The notes beneath the pieces are model-generated. The model did no database searches and was not told where the DNA came from. It saw only the letters and a program-made list of their open reading frames with translations. Shown piece by piece: positions 5,141 through 59,420 of a stretch of 64,000 nt of DNA. Every line of letters begins with the position of its first letter. Positions within the stretch are counted from its first letter, which is position 1. Both the position numbers and the translations under genes were made by a program. Location of the stretch: positions 38,564,001 to 38,628,000 of the forward strand of contig OX597830.1 of assembly GCA_951406725.2 (NCBI GenBank), written 5' to 3'. Origin of the DNA: Octopus vulgaris (Eukaryota).

Positions 5141-5357
5141 GTACTTGTTTCAGTCATTTGACTGCGGCCATGCTGGAGCACCGCCTTTTAGAGTGGTGAA
5201 AGGGTACAGCAGGGATCACCACCTCCTGCCGGAGCCTCGTGGAGCTTTTAGGTGTTTTTCGCTCAATAAACACACACAACGCCCGGTCTGGGAATCGAAA
5301 CCGCGATCCTCCGACCGCAAGTCCGCTGCCCTAACCACTAGGCCATTGCGCCTCCAC
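5139..5357 (-). mobile_element. tRNA-derived SINE head joined to a second SINE-type 3' end with poly(A) tail
   Basis: Reverse complement GTGGAGGCGCAATGGCCTAGTGGTTAGGGCAGCGGACTTGCGGTCGGAGGATCGCGGTTTCGATTCCC. The 5140-5190 part matches 42715-42770. A poly(T) run lies at 5113-5140 on +. Confidence 0.75.
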
Positions 5358-5606
5358 TAGGCCTTGCTTATTATATGCAATAAATACGAATCAGAAGCTT
5401 TCTTTGTAAGGGGATTTAGGAAAATCATTTGCAACAGAGTAATATAAAGTCAGACACGCAATATCAAGTAGATGCTTGCATATTCTGTGAATTCGTAGTA
5501 GTAATACTGATCTTTTCATCAATTCCGTTCAATGATATGAAAATCATATATATATAATTTCCACCAAATTAGTTACTATGTTATGTATGTATATATATGT
5601 GTGTGT

Positions 5607-5650
<44 letters not shown>

Positions 5651-5656
<6 letters not shown>

Positions 5657-5865
5657 TCAATATAGGGTGGCAAAAAAAATTTTGTAGAATTCTTTTGCCA
5701 CCAGCGGCCTAGTAGGAAAAAATTAAATAGTCATAAACCATTTTTACGTTCAACATCACAATCAAGGAACGGCCATAATAGGCCATTCACCCACTAGAAA
5801 TAACAGCCAAAAGCTTTAACCGCAAAATAACATTAATTCCGTAAACCAGGAGAAAATTGAAAAAC
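5651..5865 (-). repeat. Inverted partial copy of the 491-bp unit
   Basis: Near-perfect reverse complement of 5886-6097; flanked on the left by (TA)n. Confidence 0.95.
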
Positions 5866-6254
5866 TAAGAAATTACAGGGTAACAGTTTTTCAATTTTCT
5901 CTTGGTTTACGGAATTAATGTTATTTTGCGGTTAAAGCTTTTGGCTGTTATTTCTAGTGGGTGAATGGCCTATTATGGCCGTTCCTTGATTGTGATGTTG
6001 AACGTAAAAATGGTTTATGACTATTTAATTTTTTCCTACTAGCGCTGGTGGCAAAAGAATTCTACAAAATTTTTTTGCCACCCTATATTGATTAATTATG
6101 AATTTTCTGGTTAGTTCCGTAATGGAATCGGTGGCTTATATTTATTTGCTGCCGATAAATTTGGCGCGAGTGCGACGATTTGAAAATTTTAGGTCAGATA
6201 TTGCCGAGGTAGCAAGAGGAATGCCTCGTGAAAAATATCTGTTCCGACTTGGCT

Positions 6255-6361
6255 ATTTCTTACTGATGAGTCTAAGGGCCTATGGTGGATTAGCTTGATT
6301 TAATTTAATCAGGTTAGTTTACCATTAAACGGTAGATGAAACGGTGCATCGTCTAAGAAAT
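6255..6361 (+). ncRNA. Type I hammerhead ribozyme, copy 1
   Basis: Helix I ATTTCTTA(6255-62)/TAAGAAAT(6354-61); core CTGATGA (6263-69); helix II GTCTA...TAGAT; GAAA (6338-41); helix III ACGGTGCATCGT; GUC triplet with cleavage predicted after C6353. Confidence 0.88.
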
Positions 6362-6745
6362 TACAGGGTAAAAGTTTTTCAATTTTCTCCTGGTTTACGG
6401 AATTAATGTTATTTTGCGGTTAAAGCATTTGGCTGTTATTTCTAGTAGGTGAATGGCCTATTATGGCCGTTCCTTGATTGTGATGTTGAACGTAAAAATG
6501 GTTTATGACTATTTAATTTTTTCCTACTAGGCCGCTGGTGGCAAAAGAATTCTACAAAATTTTTTTTGCCACCCTATATTGATTAATTATGAATTTTCTG
6601 GTTAGTTCCGTAATGGAATCGGTGGCTTATATTTATTTGCTGCCGATAAATTTGGCGCGAGTGCGACGATTTGAAAATTTTAGGTCAGATATTGCCGAGG
6701 TAGCAAGAGGAATGCCTCGTGAAAAATATCTGTTCCGACTTGGCT

Positions 6746-6852
6746 ATTTCTTACTGATGAGTCTAAGGGCCTATGGTGGATTAGCTTGATTTAATTTAAT
6801 CAGGTTAGTTTACCATTAAACGGTAGATGAAACGGTGCATCGTCTAAGAAAT
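6746..6852 (+). ncRNA. Type I hammerhead ribozyme, copy 2
   Basis: Same motif as copy 1; cleavage predicted after C6844. Confidence 0.88.
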
Positions 6853-7237
6853 TACAGGGTAAAAGTTTTTCAATTTTCTCCTGGTTTACGGAATTAATGT
6901 TATTTTGCGGTTAAAGCTTTTGGCTGTTATTTCTAGTGGGTGAATGGCCTATTATGGCCGTTCCTTGATTGTGATGTTGAACGTAAAAATGGTTTATGAC
7001 TATTTAATTTTTTCCTACTAGGCCGCTGGTGGCAAAAGAATTCTACAAAATTTTTTTTTGCCACCCTATATTGATTAATTATGAATTTTCTGGTTAGTTC
7101 CGTAATGGAATCGGTGGCTTATATTTATTTGCTGCCGATAAATTTGGCGCGAGTGCGACGATTTGAAAATTTTAGGTCAGATATTGCCGAGGTAGCAAGA
7201 GGAATGCCTCGTGAAAAATATCTGTTCCGACTTGGCT

Positions 7238-7344
7238 ATTTCTTACTGATGAGTCTAAGGGCCTATGGTGGATTAGCTTGATTTAATTTAATCAGGTTAG
7301 TTTACCATTAAACGGTAGATGAAACGGTGCATCGTCTAAGAAAT
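7238..7344 (+). ncRNA. Type I hammerhead ribozyme, copy 3
   Basis: Same motif; cleavage predicted after C7336. Confidence 0.88.
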
Positions 7345-7728
7345 TACAGGGTAAAAGTTTTTCAATTTTCTCCTGGTTTACGGAATTAATGTTATTTTGC
7401 GGTTAAAGCTTTTGGCTGTTATTTCTAGTGGGTGAATGGCCTATTATGGCCGTTCCTTGATTGTGATGTTGAACGTAAAAATGGTTTATGACTATTTAAT
7501 TTTTTCCTACTAGGCCGCTGGTGGCAAAAGAATTCTACAAAATTTTTTTTGCCACCCTATATTGATTAATTATGAATTTTCTGGTTAGTTCCGTAATGGA
7601 ATCGGTGGCTTATATTTATTTGCTGCCGATAAATTTGGCGCGAGTGCGACGATTTGAAAATTTTAGGTCAGATATTGCCGAGGTAGCAAGAGGAATGCCT
7701 CGTGAAAAATATCTGTTCCGACTTGGCT

Positions 7729-7835
7729 ATTTCTTACTGATGAGTCTAAGGGCCTATGGTGGATTAGCTTGATTTAATTTAATCAGGTTAGTTTACCATT
7801 AAACGGTAGATGAAACGGTGCATCGTCTAAGAAAT
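7729..7835 (+). ncRNA. Type I hammerhead ribozyme, copy 4
   Basis: Same motif; cleavage predicted after C7827. Confidence 0.88.
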
Positions 7836-8219
7836 TACAGGGTAACAGTTTTTCAATTTTCTCCTGGTTTACGGAATTAATGTTATTTTGCGGTTAAAAC
7901 TTTTGGCTGTTATTTCTAGTGGGTGAATGGCCTATTATGGCCGTTCCTTGATTGTGATGTTGAACGTAAAAATGGTTTATGACTATTTAATTTTTTCCTA
8001 CTAGGCCGCTGGTGGCAAAAGAATTCTACAAAATTTTTTTTGCCACCCTATATTGATTAATTATGAATTTTCTGGTTAGTTCCGTAATGGAATCGGTGGC
8101 TTATATTTATTTGCTGCCGATAAATTTGGCGCGAGTGCGACGATTTGAAAATTTTAGGTCAGATATTGCCGAGGTAGCAAGAGGAATGCCTCGTGAAAAA
8201 TATCTGTTCCGACTTGGCT

Positions 8220-8326
8220 ATTTCTTACTGATGAGTCTAAGGGCCTATGGTGGATTAGCTTGATTTAATTTAATCAGGTTAGTTTACCATTAAACGGTAG
8301 ATGAAACGGTGCATCGTCAAAGAAAT
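8220..8326 (+). ncRNA. Type I hammerhead ribozyme, copy 5 (first helix I pair mutated)
   Basis: Same core, but GTC is followed by AAAGAAAT (T>A at 8319), which breaks the pair next to the cleavage site. Confidence 0.8.
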
Positions 8327-8444
8327 TACAGGGTAAAAGTTTTTCAATTTTCTCCTGGTTTACGGAATTAATGTTATTTTGCGGTTAAAGCTTTTGGCTG
8401 TTATTTCTAGTGGGTGAATGGCCTATTATGGCCGTTCCTTGATT

Positions 8445-8529
<85 letters not shown>

Positions 8530-9141
8530 GTGTATGTATGTATGTATGAATGTATGTATGTATATTTGCTGAATTTTCTTGAGAACATTTCTTCGTGGTA
8601 AGACCATAGCGAATCTACTTCTAGCATAAGGGTTGTCGACATAGTGGTCATCCCTCTCATATGTATGTAATATGTATATATGACTGTATGTTTACATATG
8701 TATAAACATATACATACACACATACAAACACACGCATACGCACACGCACATACACATATACGTGTATGTATATATATGTTTGTGTGTGATCGTGCCCGCG
8801 TATAAGTGACTATAGTTTGTTAAAAAAAAGAATAGAAGGATCAGTGGGAAGAACATGACAGACAATATGTCAAATCCTGTGTGGTAATTTGCAAGGCACT
8901 AAATGAGAAGAGACTATTTATGAAAAAACAACTGTTCTCTGAAATTATCTTAATATTGATAAAAAGACTGTCAATTCCTGGAGCCAAAGCTATGCACGTG
9001 TGTTTCTGCTTCAATTGAAACCCACCATCGTCAGAGTCAGTTTCATACTTTATCTCTGGCCAAGTGGATAATTATACACTTATAAACGGCTAGAATATAT
9101 TTACACGGATACTTTCTTCCCTGATCGTCTATCTCTACGAT

Positions 9142-19829: not shown

Positions 19830-20600
19830 TCGCTAGGCATTCTCTTTAGGATTAGGGTCGGCATCACTTTAACCCCAATTCCAAGCAGGAAATCCAAAAT
19901 TGCTTCTGCATCTGCTTTTCACTTGTTGAATTATAACGTTCTCGCCATGACATCTTCCTTCTTCGATAATGTGAGCCCCATCCAACATATCGATGTATCA
20001 TGCAGTATTGAAATGGCCATCCATGATGACAAGTGGTAGCCCCCGCTCCACACCATAAAACCACCCACACTGTTCTTTCACTTGGAATGAATAGAATTTT
20101 GTATGCATTCATCTTACACAGTAATACTTATAAACATCGGCGCCATGCAAATTATATTTTTTCTCATCAGACAACAGAACATTAGTGTATTCACCATTCC
20201 ACATCTAATGCTGCCGAGCAAAATGCAATCTAATAGCTTTGTGGGAAGCGGACAATAACTGACGCCCGAGCTGCTTCTTTAGGTGGAAATCATAGTTCAA
20301 AATCACTCTTCGCGCGTTGGATGTCGAGACGCCTACTCCTGTTGATGTCTTGATTTAAAAAACTTAAGAGAGGCCTGACTTCTTCACAGCTCTGACAATG
20401 GTCCTTCCGTCCTTTTCTGATGTTGCCTTGGAACGTCCACCTGCATGAACCCTGTTGTAGCTGTCAGGATCTTTCAGAAAATTGTCCACCGGGGTTCTGC
20501 TTCGCGGAATCTTTTCGGTAATCTTCTGGATACACATTCCTTCTGCTTTCTGTGCAAGAATATTCCCTTGTTTAATTTTGGAAAGCTTCATAGCTTTAAG
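19830..20600 (-). pseudogene. Tc3-like (Tc1/mariner) transposase pseudogene
   Basis: N-terminal HTH region KLSKIKQGNILAQKAEGMCIQKITEKIPRSRTPVDNFLKDPDSY...GRSKATSEKDGRTIVRA resembles Tc3 transposase; VLLSDEKKYNLHGAD (~20135-20180, cf. VVFSDEKKFNLDGPD); DPNPKENA (~19835-19858, cf. SPDLNPIENLW). Confidence 0.8.
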
Positions 20601-21654
20601 CGTAGTGAAGATGCAATCTGGATCTTGGAGATTACGACTGAGTCGAATATTTTCCGAAATAATCTGAGAAGAAATGGAAATTTATTAGTAGCTTTACAAT
20701 TTTGAAGAGTTGATATGCTAGGGAAAAACCAGGAATATCAGGTGTTGTAATGTGATAATAAAGATATATAGTGTGCATTTCAAAATATAAACGATATACC
20801 AGTTTAAAATATTTTATGCCCCTTTGGGCCCTTAAATACAGAGTTAAAATTCTAAACAATTAAAAACAAATATACATGTTATAGTTTTGAAAAACCTCAT
20901 TCCAGATTTCGTGATGGTTTCTTTCAATATACAATCTCAAATTATTCATCATTTACACACACACGCACGCATAAAACACGCAGGTTCATACACATATACA
21001 CACACATACATTTACATTTAAATATATATATTGATATCTACATAAAGGATTCGCTTGCATACATTCTTACACAGCAAGATAGAGACAATACTCGATTATC
21101 AAAGGCACTTGAAAATATAGTTCTGTGGTAAGCCTGGAAAATTAACAGCATTTACTTCGATTTGCCATAGCTGATCAGTAAACAGAGGTGAAATTTTGGA
21201 AAGATACTATGGTTTTTAAATGTCTTTAAATGGTGCAGAGAAGATTATTTGGCAAATAACAAAATTAACATTTATAACCGGGGGAGCGTGGCTCGTGACA
21301 TTTGAAAATAAACGAAACTATAACGGAAAGCAGTATAATCCTTAATCTCAAAGGAAATAATTTTGAATAAAACGACGAGCGGTGCATGGTGTTGGGAAAG
21401 GGTTACACTATCTACTTCCAAGCAAAATAAGCAGGCAAGTATCGTTGAAGAACAGAGACAGAGCAAGAATACATTGAACATTTAAAAGAAACAATGAATA
21501 TGAAAAGAGAATAATTAAAACAAGAGTAAATGTGCATGAAAAATAGGAAATGATTTTGTTGAAGAGTAAGAGGGTGAAGAAGAGATTACAAAAGAAATAG
21601 AAAGCGTGATAAGATAAAAAGATTGGAAAGTAAAAATCGATTGAGATTGTGTTT

Positions 21655-33274: not shown

Positions 33275-34499
33275 AAACTTGCATCTTTTTCATTTCAAAT
33301 AACTGCAAAGCACTATGCAGTTACTGGGTATATTGGGACGGAAAAGCCTTGCTCTGATTTTCGCTAAATATTTAATACATTCTTTGGTCTGGATCCATCA
33401 GTTAAAACATCTAATTGAATGGATAAATATACATTTGATGAAATATTTTTCCTATCGCCGGAAATAATCCAGCATAATACTGTTTCTCATATACTTTTCT
33501 AACTTTAGAGACAACTGTAGAATAATATTTCCCCCAATCACGTGCGGAACAAATAGAATCAATAAATTTGAAGTCGTGAGTGTTGATGTAACTTAATCTG
33601 CTTAGTAAAAATTAAAATATCTATGCACAGAATACCATATATAAGTTTATATTTCTTCAGAGATGTTCCACAGTGAGCTATGTATGATGCCTATTATAGA
33701 AGTCAAATTGTCGTTTTAACTTCTGAAATGTGTAGAGGCTGAAAACATCTAAACTGTGTACTATTTAATCAGTAATTACATTATTCCTATCTATATTTTT
33801 CTGAATCGATATGAAAAATTCATTGGGAAAATACACTCTATTGACATAGAGTTTGATAAATTAATTGCAAATTATATTTAGCTGTAACTTTATTGTCAAT
33901 ACGTTTTCATTATTACAATTCTTAGAGTGGTAGTTATACATTCTATTTTTTCAAAAGTTTATTCTATATTAAGTTGAATATAAAAAGACACACCTTGTTG
34001 AAATTAAATGCATTTAAAGCGAAATCCGCAAAATATATATCACATTCTATTAAAAAGTCTAGCACTGAAGAAAAGTGATGGTCCAGACTCAATTTTTTTT
34101 TACTATATTTGTATACATCTAAAATAAACATTATTTTCCTCTCTTTTCTATATAAAGAAACTCATTAATCTACAGGAACAATAGACAGTAATTTGTTTTA
34201 ATTCCTTTTAGAATTCACATTTCTTCTCTTTATGTTCAATTTATATCAAGTTAATGGTTTCTTTTTAAAATTAGGATTGTGATAAGTACAAAGGAATAAG
34301 GAGTTAATCTTGGAACACATCGACAAATAAATTCTGATTTCGTCGACAAAGAACGTAAATATATGAAAATAGTAAAGACAAGATGAATGGTAGACAATTC
34401 GATATTTTACTGACTATAAAAACATTGCAAACCATATCTATTTTTCTCCAAGTAACTGTGTGTGTATGCGTGTGTGTATGTGTATGTGGACTGCACACA

Positions 34500-35729
34500 C
34501 TACCGTACCATCACCCTGATCCCCCATGTAAGTAACATTCTCCTTAAAATCATCCAGAAGCGCCTGAACACAACTATTGAGAGAGAATTGCCAGAGGTGC
34601 AAGCTGGCTTCAGAAAGGGAAGGGGCACCCGCGATCACATCGCCAACCTACGGTGGATTATGGCAAAGGCAAGAGAATACCAAAAGAAGCTGTACATGTG
34701 TTTCATCAATTACTCCAAAGCCTTTGACAGCATTGATCATGACAAGTTATAGAAATGTCTGGAGGAAATGGGAGCACCTTTACATCTTGTCCAGCTTATT
34801 AGATCACTCTATCAAAATCAAGAGTACGGACACCATATGGCGAAACTGATTGGTTGCATCCTGTCACCAGAAGCCTTCAATATGTACGCTGAAAAGGCCA
34901 TGAGGAATGCAGGCCTGGAGGATAGCAGCATTGGAGTGAGGATTGGAGGAAGAAATATTAATAACCTTCGCTATGCAGATGATACAACCCTGCTGGCGGA
35001 GAGTGGTAAGAATCTGGAGGATCTTGTCCTGCTCGTCAAGAAAGAGAGTGAGAAATTTGGGCTGTACCTTAATGTTAAGAAAACGAAGATCATGCCCACA
35101 GCAGCCACAACAAACATCAACATCAAGATCGAAGTGGTTGATGATTTCATCTTCCTTGGCTCCAAAATAAATCGAGATGGTGACTGCACTCCAGAAATAA
35201 GACAGCGGATAGTACTAGGCAGAGAGGCAATGGCCAGCATGAGCAGGGTCTGGAAGAGTAGAGACATCAGACGCGCTACCAAATGCAGATTGGTGAATGC
35301 AATTGTCTTCCCAATAGCAACATATGGATGCGAGACCTGGACACTAAAGAAAGCTGACCAGAAGAGAATTAATTCATTCGAGCTTTGGTGTTGGAGAAGG
35401 CATTTACGGATTCTATGGACAGCGAGGCTCACCAATGGAGAAGTTCTTGAGCAGGTCATGCCGAAAATGTCGCTAGAAGCTAGGATCACTAAGCATAGAT
35501 CGGCATATCTTGGTCATATTATGCGGAGAAAATCCCTGGGGAAGGACATCATGCTCGGAATGGTCAGTGGCAAGTGACGAAGAGGCTGACCAAGAACCTG
35601 CTGTCTTGACACCATCAGGACTGATACCGGAATCGACATAGCCAATCTGAAAGAAGCGGCCCAGGATAGAACTGACTGGAGGACACTGATCCATATCGAG
35701 TAACCGAGAGTCGACTTCGACTGAGCGGA
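34500..35729 (+). mobile_element. 5'-truncated RTE-clade (BovB-like) LINE, RT and C-terminus, disrupted
   Basis: YRTITLIPH, QAGFRKGRGTRDHI, INYSKAFDSI, GCILSP, NNLRYADDT, FIFLGS, YGCETW, FELWCWRR and YLGHIMR; stop at 34750 plus deletions; ends in (TA)n. Confidence 0.95.
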
Positions 35730-56506: not shown

Positions 56507-58979
56507 AAGTTAGTTAGTTAGTTAGTTAGTTAGTTAATTTGGCTCAAAAGCAAATAGCAAGGCCATGTAGGGGGACATGGAGTTAAGTACAGGGTGGTGT
56601 TCATGTAAAGAGTTCAGGCCACTTGAGGTCCAGGGAGGCTTTGAACAAAGCGGTCGTCGGCATCTTCACCATCTCGTCTGGCAGCTTGTTCCACGGATCC
56701 GCAACCCGGACGGAGAAAGCTCCTCTCCTTCGATTGAGATGAAATCGTCGCAGGTAGAGCTTTTCGGAATGACCCCACAGCCGACGCTCCGGAGCAGGAG
56801 TGAAGAACAGCTCTTTCGAGAGGTTACACTTCCCGCTTATGATGTTGTGGGCGAGAATGAGATCACCACGGCGGCGGCGTTTTTCAAGAGAATAAAGGTC
56901 GAGCGTCCTCAGCCTTTCTTCGTAGGACAAATTTTTGAGACCATGAACCATGCGGGTAGCCAGCCTCTGGACTCTTTCGAGGTGCTGTATGTCTTTGAGG
57001 AGATAAGGAGAAGAGGCTTGAATCCCATATTCCAATATGGGTCTCACCAGCGTGACATAGAATGGCAGGAATATGGCTGCTGTGAGCATTCCGTATGACC
57101 GTCGAATCAAAAACAGAATTCCGCGCGCTTTGTTGGCAGCATGGACGCACTGGGCCGAAGGCGAAAAGGAGGAATCCACCAAGATACCCAGGTCCTTTAC
57201 CTGATCGGTCCTCTCCAGCAGCAGACGACCCGGCTCGAAATCAAGTTGAGTTGCAGGAGTAGAGCCGACAGGCAGATGACAGCACTTTGACACGTTCAGA
57301 CACAGGTCCCAATCGTTAGACCACTTCCAAATTTGGTGGAGGCATCGACGAAGATCCTCTATACTACCGCGAGGAGCGACCAGTTTGATATCGTCGGCAA
57401 ATAGAAGGGTGTGTTGCGTGAGGTCGTCGGGCAAGTCATTTATGAAGACTAAGAACAACAAGGGCCCAAGCACTGAACCTTGAGGCACGCCACTGCTCGC
57501 ACTGGAGACGTCGGACCGCGAACCATTAACTTGAACTTGGAAGGAGCGATCTGAGAGGAAGGCACCAACCCATCGTACAATATCCGGATGGAAACTATAT
57601 GCTTGAAGCTTGACAAGTAGTAGGCGATGGTTTACCGAGTCAAAAGCTTTGGCAAAGTCCAATAAAACGATGTCAACAGCATCATTATCATCGAGGATGC
57701 GCGTCACCAATTCTTCCATTACTAGTAAGTTGGTCAAGCATGATCTCTTCGGCACGAAGCCGTGTTGGGAATCAGTGATCGAGGCTGTGTTTAGGAGGTG
57801 GAGCATCATACTTTTCTTAAGGATGGTTTCGAACATCTTGCTGATTATTGATGTAAGGGAAACCGGTCGGTAGTTAAGCGGGTCTTCGCGGCTCCCTTTC
57901 TTGAAAATTGGGCAGATTATCGCTGTTCTCCAGTCTGAAGGTATAACACCCGTCGCCAATGACATATTGAATAGTCGTGTTAAGGGCTCGCAGATGACCG
58001 GAGCCAACGCTTTGATAACCCGTGGGTGTATGCCGTCAGGGCTGTGACCCTTGTTGACATCGAGGCCTTGAATAACACGTTTGACTTGGTCCCGCGTGAT
58101 GATCAATCGAAGCATTGGAGGTACCGATCTATCAAATGGAGGGGGTTCACGACCATCATCTTGTTTGAAAATAGTTGAAAAAGCCTCGGCAAATAATTGA
58201 CTCTGTTGATAAGGGTCCTCAATCGATACGCCTGTTGAGTCTACCAACGTTGCAATCTGGTTGTTCAAGCGGGAATTCCGCTGGACATGGGCAAAGAAGG
58301 TTTTTGGATCGCTACTGGCATTTGCCGCGATTTTGTATTCATAACTGAAGCGTTCTTTCTTTTCAATTTTCACGGCTCGGTCTCGTTGAGTTTTGTACAC
58401 CTCAAAAGCTGCAGTCGAATCCAGATTTTTGAATTCAGCCCAAGCAATATCTCTGAGTCGACGTTCTCGTTTAACCTTCTTCGTCACCCAGGGCTTGTGT
58501 TTCTTCCTCTTGGGAAGTCCAACGGGAACTGCCTGGTCAGTCAAACAGATTACATATGCTTTGAGGGATGACCATAGTTCGTGAACTGAGGACAACGTCA
58601 TCAGGGAACGCCAGTCCAGAAGCACGGAAGCCTCGGTTAGAATTTCAAGATTAATTGCAGAGAAGACACTACGTGGCAGCGAAGTAATCGTGGGCGTGGA
58701 AAAAGTTGTGTGCATGACGAACTTCAGGACCGCATGATCACTCTTGGCAAGAGGGGCGCACACAGATACGTCTGACACTGATCTTGGATAGCGGGAGAAT
58801 ACCAGATCTAGCATAGATGGCTGCTGCCCAGACCGATGCCTTGTCGGATATTCAACATGTTGCGAGAGAAAACAATCTTCAGCCACGTCAAGAAGGGCCT
58901 GGCCGAACCGGGAAGATGTTGTACAAATTGATGCGGGCCAATCGATCGTGGGAGCGTTGAAGTCGCCTAGTACCAGTAA
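56507..58979 (-). mobile_element. 5'-truncated CR1-group LINE with (TAAC)n tail
   Basis: (AGTT)n at 56507-56536 on +, a short 3' UTR and an uninterrupted ORF2; visibly more GC-rich than the flanks; splits a SINE (halves at 56460-56506 and 59095-59176). Confidence 0.95.
56601..58979 (-). CDS. LINE ORF2 fragment: C-terminal part of the AP endonuclease plus complete reverse transcriptase (~790 aa, no native start)
   Basis: LVLGDFN, LDLVFS, SDH (APE); YRPVSLTS, QHGF, LDFAKAFDSV, GVPQGSVLGPLLF, LFADD, KDLGI, RRRRGDLI (CR1-type RT and C-terminus). The first ~25 aa of the 816-aa track ORF come from flanking DNA. Confidence 0.92.
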   Translation of the reverse strand, partial: LLVLGDFNAPTIDWPASICTTSSRFGQALLDVAEDCFLSQHVEYPTRHRSGQQPSMLDLVFSRYPRSVSDVSVCAPLAKSDHAVLKFVMHTTFSTPTITSLPRSVFSAINLEILTEASVLLDWRSLMTLSSVHELWSSLKAYVICLTDQAVPVGLPKRKKHKPWVTKKVKRERRLRDIAWAEFKNLDSTAAFEVYKTQRDRAVKIEKKERFSYEYKIAANASSDPKTFFAHVQRNSRLNNQIATLVDSTGVSIEDPYQQSQLFAEAFSTIFKQDDGREPPPFDRSVPPMLRLIITRDQVKRVIQGLDVNKGHSPDGIHPRVIKALAPVICEPLTRLFNMSLATGVIPSDWRTAIICPIFKKGSREDPLNYRPVSLTSIISKMFETILKKSMMLHLLNTASITDSQHGFVPKRSCLTNLLVMEELVTRILDDNDAVDIVLLDFAKAFDSVNHRLLLVKLQAYSFHPDIVRWVGAFLSDRSFQVQVNGSRSDVSSASSGVPQGSVLGPLLFLVFINDLPDDLTQHTLLFADDIKLVAPRGSIEDLRRCLHQIWKWSNDWDLCLNVSKCCHLPVGSTPATQLDFEPGRLLLERTDQVKDLGILVDSSFSPSAQCVHAANKARGILFLIRRSYGMLTAAIFLPFYVTLVRPILEYGIQASSPYLLKDIQHLERVQRLATRMVHGLKNLSYEERLRTLDLYSLEKRRRRGDLILAHNIISGKCNLSKELFFTPAPERRLWGHSEKLYLRRFHLNRRRGAFSVRVADPWNKLPDEMVKMPTTALFKASLDLKWPELFT

Positions 58980-59420
58980 TGTATATGTGTGCGTGCGTGC
59001 GCGTGCATGTGTGAAATTGTGAGAAAGTGATTGGAAAATGCAGTGTGACAAAGTAAAGAAGAGGAAAAAGCAGCCAGAAGAGGCCTAGTAATGTCGAGCT
59101 CAGAACGTAGAGACGGTCAAAATTCCGCTACGCATTTCCTCTGGCCTGCTACCGTTTCTGCCAACTCACCGCCTTTGTATGAAGAAAGGATTAAAACCAA
59201 CAGTATTGCCTTTCTGAAATTTGAAATGATCATATATCACCATCTGAAGTTGAAGATAAGGACAATATATTCTACAATTTAAATAGAAATCTAAGTATTA
59301 CAGAATATACACATGGCCTCTTCTGTCTGCGTTTTCCTCTTCTTTACTTTGTCACACTGCATTTTCCAATCACTTTCTCACAATTTCACACATGCACGCG
59401 CACGCACGCACACATGTACA
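58980..59420. repeat. 106-bp inverted duplication at the LINE 5' junction
   Basis: 58980-59085 is the reverse complement of 59315-59420 with 3 mismatches by eye. Confidence 0.92.

Follow-up and report, generated by a model that had tools for sequence, protein, structure and literature searches.

A non-LTR retrozyme of Octopus vulgaris whose two-armed insertions into TA microsatellites likely reflect a single small RNA copied at both strands of the cut target by a Penelope-type enzyme

Animal non-LTR retrozymes are described, in the parts of the published accounts considered here, as dispersed tandem arrays of non-coding, low-GC units that carry one type I hammerhead each, are flanked by long target duplications and are proposed to depend on Penelope elements. 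Examples come from coral and Mytilus (350-390 bp) and from axolotl (330/350 bp) (Cervera and de la Pena 2020, PMC7229834), with a unit range given as 150-450 bp in the main text of that source and as 51-972 bp in that of a later one (Li, Clavereau and Pollet 2026, 10.64898/2026.07.22.740005). The element of Octopus vulgaris described here resembles them in all these respects. It differs in its unit of 491 nt, which lies above the first range and inside the second, in a long extra hairpin in loop II and, as far as those accounts extend, in insertions that have two arms and a pair of fixed ends separated by 106 nt. A second group for comparison consists of the EN+ Penelope/Poseidon, Neptune and Naiad elements, for which the portions of the literature consulted report an inverted 5'-truncated copy, a tail at one end, AT-rich or (TA)n targets (PMC8557442, PMC3846280), a hammerhead slightly upstream of the ends and two internal start sites (PMC8557442, PMC3846280, PMC11167929). 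The octopus element shares these features; unlike the EN+ Penelopes, it has no ORF, a tail of 106 nt instead of 30-40 nt, a full three-helix hammerhead and arms that can both be multimeric, and its target duplication measures 14-15 bp as against 8-10 bp in rotifer Penelope. A third group, the dimer-acting hammerheads of newt satellite 2 and axolotl, has in common with it a short helix III, a palindromic loop and tandem copies, going by the main texts (PMC4209133, PMC7229834), whereas the octopus helix III has four pairs and its helix II bears a 19-bp hairpin. The literature covered, mainly open main texts, contained no cephalopod retrozyme and no two-site priming on a retrozyme.

The element lies in a 64-kb window, this being the whole stretch of DNA analysed and the frame of all coordinates given without a locus, on contig 17; the assembly, over which the genome counts were taken, comprises 227 contigs and 2.8 Gb. 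Unit positions are numbered so that 6354, the base following the predicted hammerhead cut, is position 1. TRF returned a 491-bp period with 5.3 copies and a 99% match at 5865-8449 (+), and the lengths from cut to cut are 489, 491, 492, 491 and 491 bp, followed by a partial unit of 131 bp, in agreement with the original prediction of five near-identical units of about 491 bp plus a partial one. This long arm ends outwardly at 8449 (fixed end A). The 218 bp to its left (5649-5866, - strand) are not flank, being an inverted copy of unit positions 20-237 that is 99% identical and has its outer (3') end at 5649 (fixed end B). The two arms are joined head to head with an overlap of 2 nt (5865-5866), the long arm beginning at the predicted hammerhead cut site, and both 3' ends face outward into (TA)n. 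On the left this is a TA-rich microsatellite, the target, with pure TA beside the element (5582-5648), and on the right a (TA)n tract followed by a (TATG)n microsatellite (8450-8563), so that the predicted insertion into (TA)n holds on both sides. The reference monomer, from cut site to cut site (6354-6844, +), is 491 nt long with approximately 36% GC and no evident LTR arrangement, and unit-specific differences are present within the array. The longest ORF in the unit has 66 codons; a coding role was rejected for it, as it shows a frameshift or lacks the ATG in other subfamilies, which leaves the array without protein, as had been foreseen. As a whole, the 2.8-kb repeat represents a single young insertion of a multi-copy element that has no coding capacity.

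Several other features occur in the window. Left of the array, a very common short repeat (5141-5360; 165 BLAST rows among the examined loci) is presumably SINE-like. A tRNA-derived SINE was rejected as an explanation of the array, ARAGORN finding no tRNA-like head in the window, a search that degenerate heads can escape. Just past the right microsatellite, a fragment of another abundant repeat (8570-8672) has matches of 74-81% in four other loci and is likely a piece of a different retrozyme-like family, resembling by eye the stretch downstream of another hammerhead, in L171. Farther away lie an 827-codon open frame encoding the endonuclease and reverse transcriptase domains of a LINE-type element (56601-59084, - strand), the broken reverse transcriptase of a LINE-type element (34456-35577, + strand) and a putative Tc1 transposase remnant (20364-20681, - strand). 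Four translated stretches yielded no clear host exon.

Each full unit contains the motifs CUGAUGA, GAAAC and GUC in a predicted hammerhead with a helix I of 8 bp, a helix II of 5 bp plus a 19-bp hairpin, and a helix III of 4 bp with a palindromic loop. At the DNA level, CTGATGA starts at 6263, 6754, 7246, 7737 and 8228, and the GAAAC..GTC segment ends at 6353, 6844, 7336, 7827 and 8318. Hammerhead 1 (6255-6361, +; core 6263-6269) is predicted to cut after 6353, hammerhead 2 (6746-6852, +) after 6844, hammerhead 3 (7238-7344, +) after 7336 and hammerhead 4 (7729-7835, +) after 7827. In hammerhead 5 (8220-8326, +), T>A at 8319 disrupts the first helix I pair, beside the cut, and likely weakens the ribozyme; of the claim that every full unit holds a type I hammerhead with helices I-III, the five cores therefore stand, with helix I intact in four of them. 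The Rfam check that had been proposed matched Hammerhead_1 (RF00163) at 22.1 bits (E 0.011), below the gathering score of 34, which nothing in the window passes. The low score is ascribed to the long extra hairpin in loop II, all core positions being present. A relaxed hammerhead pattern arose in one of 20,000 dinucleotide shuffles of the unit, and the circular monomer folded with a z of -5.4 against 60 shuffles.

Conservation among 11 representatives points in the same direction as the motif itself. Paired bases filled 95.7% of the cells, compared with 28-44% in slid controls, and eight of 35 hammerhead pairs had changed on both sides, a covariation that stems from rows of two families and hence from few independent events. 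The core is intact in the representatives, with variation at the free position N7; the cut triplet is GUC or GUA only, the closing pair of helix III is G-U, G-C or A-U (11 rows), and the helix III loop is palindromic in nine of the 11 rows. Fold prediction gave -18.9 kcal/mol for the palindrome duplex versus -0.9 kcal/mol for the palindrome alone, and favoured an inactive fold of the isolated hammerhead by 5.6 kcal/mol; both predicted values fit hammerheads that would cut as a pair. Pairwise cutting is described for other animal type I hammerheads in the consulted part of PMC4209133. The preference of the isolated hammerhead for an inactive fold also weighs against the ribozyme step, as does the main text of 10.64898/2026.07.22.740005, according to which only one of nine Xenopus retrozyme dimers cut in vitro. 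Canonical contacts between loops 1 and 2 are not evident in the octopus hammerhead, given the 19-bp extension of helix II.

The genome search for further dispersed arrays, which had likewise been suggested, revealed hundreds of copies. At least 966 exact matches to a 19-nt core, at least 438 to end A plus TA and at least 693 to end B plus TA were counted genome-wide, all lower bounds, and the reversed controls gave 0. Most full-length dispersed units are 97-100% identical, in keeping with the recent insertion that had been proposed, and older subfamilies with 88-96% identity were recovered as well. Twenty B ends without a nearby core match all belonged to older subfamily copies, and none was linked to an ORF. 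A sister family of about 474 bp (1826 candidates; L184-L213) is 72-73% identical and keeps both ends. Distant relatives were sought among 62 sequence sources, and a more distant one, whose helix II is shorter and whose hairpin B is alike, was seen at L178:3640-4110. On sequence grounds, the retrozyme, the sister family and this relative form a superfamily. Type I hammerhead motifs unrelated to it are frequent in the fetched flanks (L047, L052, L063, L073, L077, L081, L108, L112 and L124, and further L151, L162, L188, L243, L244, L250, L254 and L260), the genome being rich in them. Sequencing runs under three organism labels contain about half or more of the unit words. Three presumed-RNA runs held the unit and the neighbouring repeat at about a DNA-like proportion, with no enrichment of the unit, and three other runs held no unit. 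RNA editing was rejected as a source of A>G differences, which occur in a DNA run too and are thus subfamily variants. Taken as a whole, the assignment to the known kind of element, the non-LTR retrozymes, is supported by every feature that a sequence can display, namely tandem hammerhead units, absence of coding capacity, small size, GC below 50%, dispersal and duplications longer than 4 bp.

The outer ends of the insertions are located approximately 131 nt (A) or 237 nt (B) past the predicted cut, and two-armed insertions almost always combine one of each. In a first set of 91 loci, 65 were two-armed, and the 57 with both ends canonical comprised 56 A+B, one A+A and no B+B. In a set selected by ends on contig 1 (78 loci, 63 two-armed), which has 18 loci in common with the first, all 56 canonical pairs were A+B. 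Pooling the distinct loci of both sets gave A+B in 97 of 98, and coordinates alone gave it in 21 of 21 on contigs 1-2. The sole A+A exception to the pairing rule is L182 (G000:C3:182401000-182409500). Each end is preceded by a conserved hairpin and then by a short ATTG-containing stretch; in the window, hairpin A (8416-8437, +) stands just before end A, and hairpin B (5666-5702, - strand; copy at 6537-6573 in unit 2) just before end B. Compensatory pairs were found in hairpin B, in the sister family, and in the helix that encloses site A. Target duplications were 14-15 bp long in six of 66 loci, ambiguous or absent in 12 and unreadable in 48 because the target was pure TA; three further ones measured 17-19 bp and were edged by TA. 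Neither arm is consistently the longer (A in 17 of 50), and both arms exceed one unit in 21 of 50 insertions. The inverted 5'-truncated copy and the tail at one end only, here of 106 nt, constitute the Penelope-type signature, in keeping with the mobilisation proposed in the original prediction. LINE-1 twin priming also produces head-to-head arms with their 3' ends outward, from two primed strands. Unlike in that process, the retrozyme has two fixed start sites, both of them internal, and its arms are copies of one and the same sequence; an L1-style stop of one arm at the start site of the other was rejected, no excess of ends being present near 132 or 238. What the A+B rule likely reflects is simultaneous reverse transcription of a single small RNA, by a Penelope-type enzyme, from the two strands of the cut target. 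In full, the reading that is considered probable is that a non-LTR retrozyme was pasted into a TA microsatellite by a Penelope-like enzyme acting in trans, with both nicked strands priming on one small RNA.

The form of that RNA is reflected in the inner ends of the arms and in variants shared between units. Inner ends are spread round the unit, and 21 of 136 arms stop in the 30-nt interval at the cut site, which corresponds to a hazard ratio of 2.4 (p 5e-4; A arms p 0.008, B arms p 0.015); within 5 nt, the excess had a p of 0.11 in the first locus set. The stop rate per pass was 0.11 at the cut site, 0.08 in the next interval and 0.04-0.05 in four others, so the effect of the cut site is modest, and the site was read through in 144 of 162 passes. 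The templates are read as some cut linear RNA, most of them being continuous. Among the locus-private variants, seven were fixed in all units of both arms, 14 occurred in some units and 100 in one unit, and the helix II variant of the window itself is present in five of five units and in only one other locus. Fixation through both arms points to a bottleneck of one unit. Variants common to only some of the units were found in 14 of 143 loci, this window included, some with a period of 2-4 units, a pattern for which a single monomer circle does not account. Variants shared two, three or four units apart were seen in L059 (18 units), L155, L239, L258 and, at position 19 of units 1 and 5, in the window; they may represent higher-order repeats derived from multimeric circles or from later duplication.

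The strongest competing explanation retains the same element and enzyme and takes as template a linear multimeric array transcript, of which the ribozyme trims some 5' ends, the arrays growing later by DNA duplication. It would agree with the excess of inner ends at the cut site, with the periodic variants of L059, L155, L258 and this window, and with inner ends of the two arms that agree in register to within 30 nt in 16 of 50 loci, where chance would give 6.4, as if both had reached one RNA 5' end; the main in vitro substrate, in the part of PMC11167929 considered, was indeed uncleaved RNA. It is nevertheless judged unlikely, as most passes cross the cut site, the seven variants fixed in both arms need the one-unit bottleneck, and arrays would shrink at each generation without regeneration, whereas 21 of 50 insertions are multi-unit on both arms. 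A less probable alternative derives the inverted arm from fold-back self-priming of one cDNA, or from an antisense template, the endonuclease cutting the second end afterwards. Fold-back has been proposed for rotifer Penelopes in the consulted part of PMC3846280, and it too could produce the above-chance register; against it, register is missed by over 30 nt at 34 of 50 junctions, the longer arm may be of either type, and the strict alternation of A and B is left without a reason; the few shared variants that could be compared across the junction showed no mirror order, which may be a further sign against it.

A search for the enzyme in the octopus genome with GIY-YIG gave 6136 candidates, of which 150 were scored, and several Neptune-type families were found. 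Intact ORFs of this type (765 aa from the ATG, about 99% identical) encode RT, CxxxxCxxC and GIY-YIG, the clade label following the zinc-finger-like linker motif as described in the main text of PMC8557442. The young family L100-L113 inserts in (TA)n and has a long 5' region and a degenerate minimal hammerhead near its end; Neptune-type tails are approximately 34-39 nt long and were confined to one end in all three two-armed copies seen. This family is a candidate source of active enzyme. No similarity to the unit was found in 50 GIY-YIG loci, and a BLAST match at L072 was rejected as a Penelope partner, being a fragment of the retrozyme itself. According to a third and very improbable explanation, which the original prediction had itself named as contrary to its reading, the unit would be a terminal repeat (pLTR) orphaned from an unsampled autonomous Penelope family, with the arrays as truncated copies of it. 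Penelope copies are mostly 5'-truncated, the scored fraction of the GIY-YIG candidates leaves room for such a family, and Xenopus retrozymes match pLTRs in the main text of 10.64898/2026.07.22.740005. In the octopus, however, units follow one another head to tail without an ORF, up to 18 in succession, and no arm enters coding sequence or continues into an ORF in the approximately 150 loci examined; Penelope ORF fragments lie near 12 arrays and are separated from them by (TA)n or flank. Comparison with 20 Penelope flanking regions showed no lasting similarity above shuffles (L085 scored 39, the shuffled maximum being 34). Among the loci and regions compared, no family thus emerged as the partner, and this, like the shorter Neptune-type tails, counts against the preferred reading. 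Finally, that the array is an ordinary satellite or assembly artefact in which a hammerhead arose by chance, as the sub-gathering Rfam score and an array unspanned by any short-read contig might be held to suggest, is hardly credible in view of the rarity of the pattern in shuffles, the covarying helices, the individually different units and the hundreds of copies that are scattered over the genome, with their fixed ends and target duplications.

Under the preferred reading, that of a retrozyme copied in trans by a Penelope-like enzyme, the cycle would start with transcription of an array, probably by read-through. The predicted hammerheads would then cut after GUC, probably in pairs through the palindromic helix III, into 491-nt monomers, which may be ligated to circles as in other retrozymes. 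The enzyme would nick the two (TA)n strands approximately 14-15 bp apart, as the duplications of six loci suggest, and copying would start from one nick at site A and from the second nick at site B, both sites lying just past their conserved hairpin and the shared ATTG motif. Each cDNA would run back through the unit, mostly past the ribozyme site, round a circle or by jumping, and would stop at a variable point, above chance just past the cut site. Lastly, the two cDNA ends would be joined into a head-to-head array with little or no microhomology, as the observed junctions suggest. A more specific version, in which a Penelope enzyme of two subunits occupies one circular RNA at two hairpin sites, with one site per nicked strand and both cDNAs rolling at once, is advanced tentatively, at slightly less than even chances. 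The accessible part of PMC11167929 reports that a Penelope protein from Anolis nicks the two strands, extends them and initiates at two internal sites that correspond to the tail ends. In vitro, by the same account, its start site was alike on both strands and ribozyme cleavage was unneeded; both observations count against the preferred reading.

No complete mechanism yet accounts for the inverted copies and tailed ends of Penelope elements, and retrozymes, according to a current proposal, spread as circular RNA that Penelope enzymes copy. If true, the two-subunit model would account for the inverted repeats and the one-sided tail of all Penelope elements, as well as for the regeneration of retrozyme arrays at each jump, and the 106-nt spacing would make it easier to test. 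The effect on the host is likely small. For the biology of these elements, the octopus family offers hundreds of young ORF-free insertions, a near-perfect one-of-each rule, a target duplication that can be read and a pattern in the genome that hints at in vivo cutting, and its 491-nt unit is a ready substrate with which the ideas of spread by circles and of two start sites may be tested.
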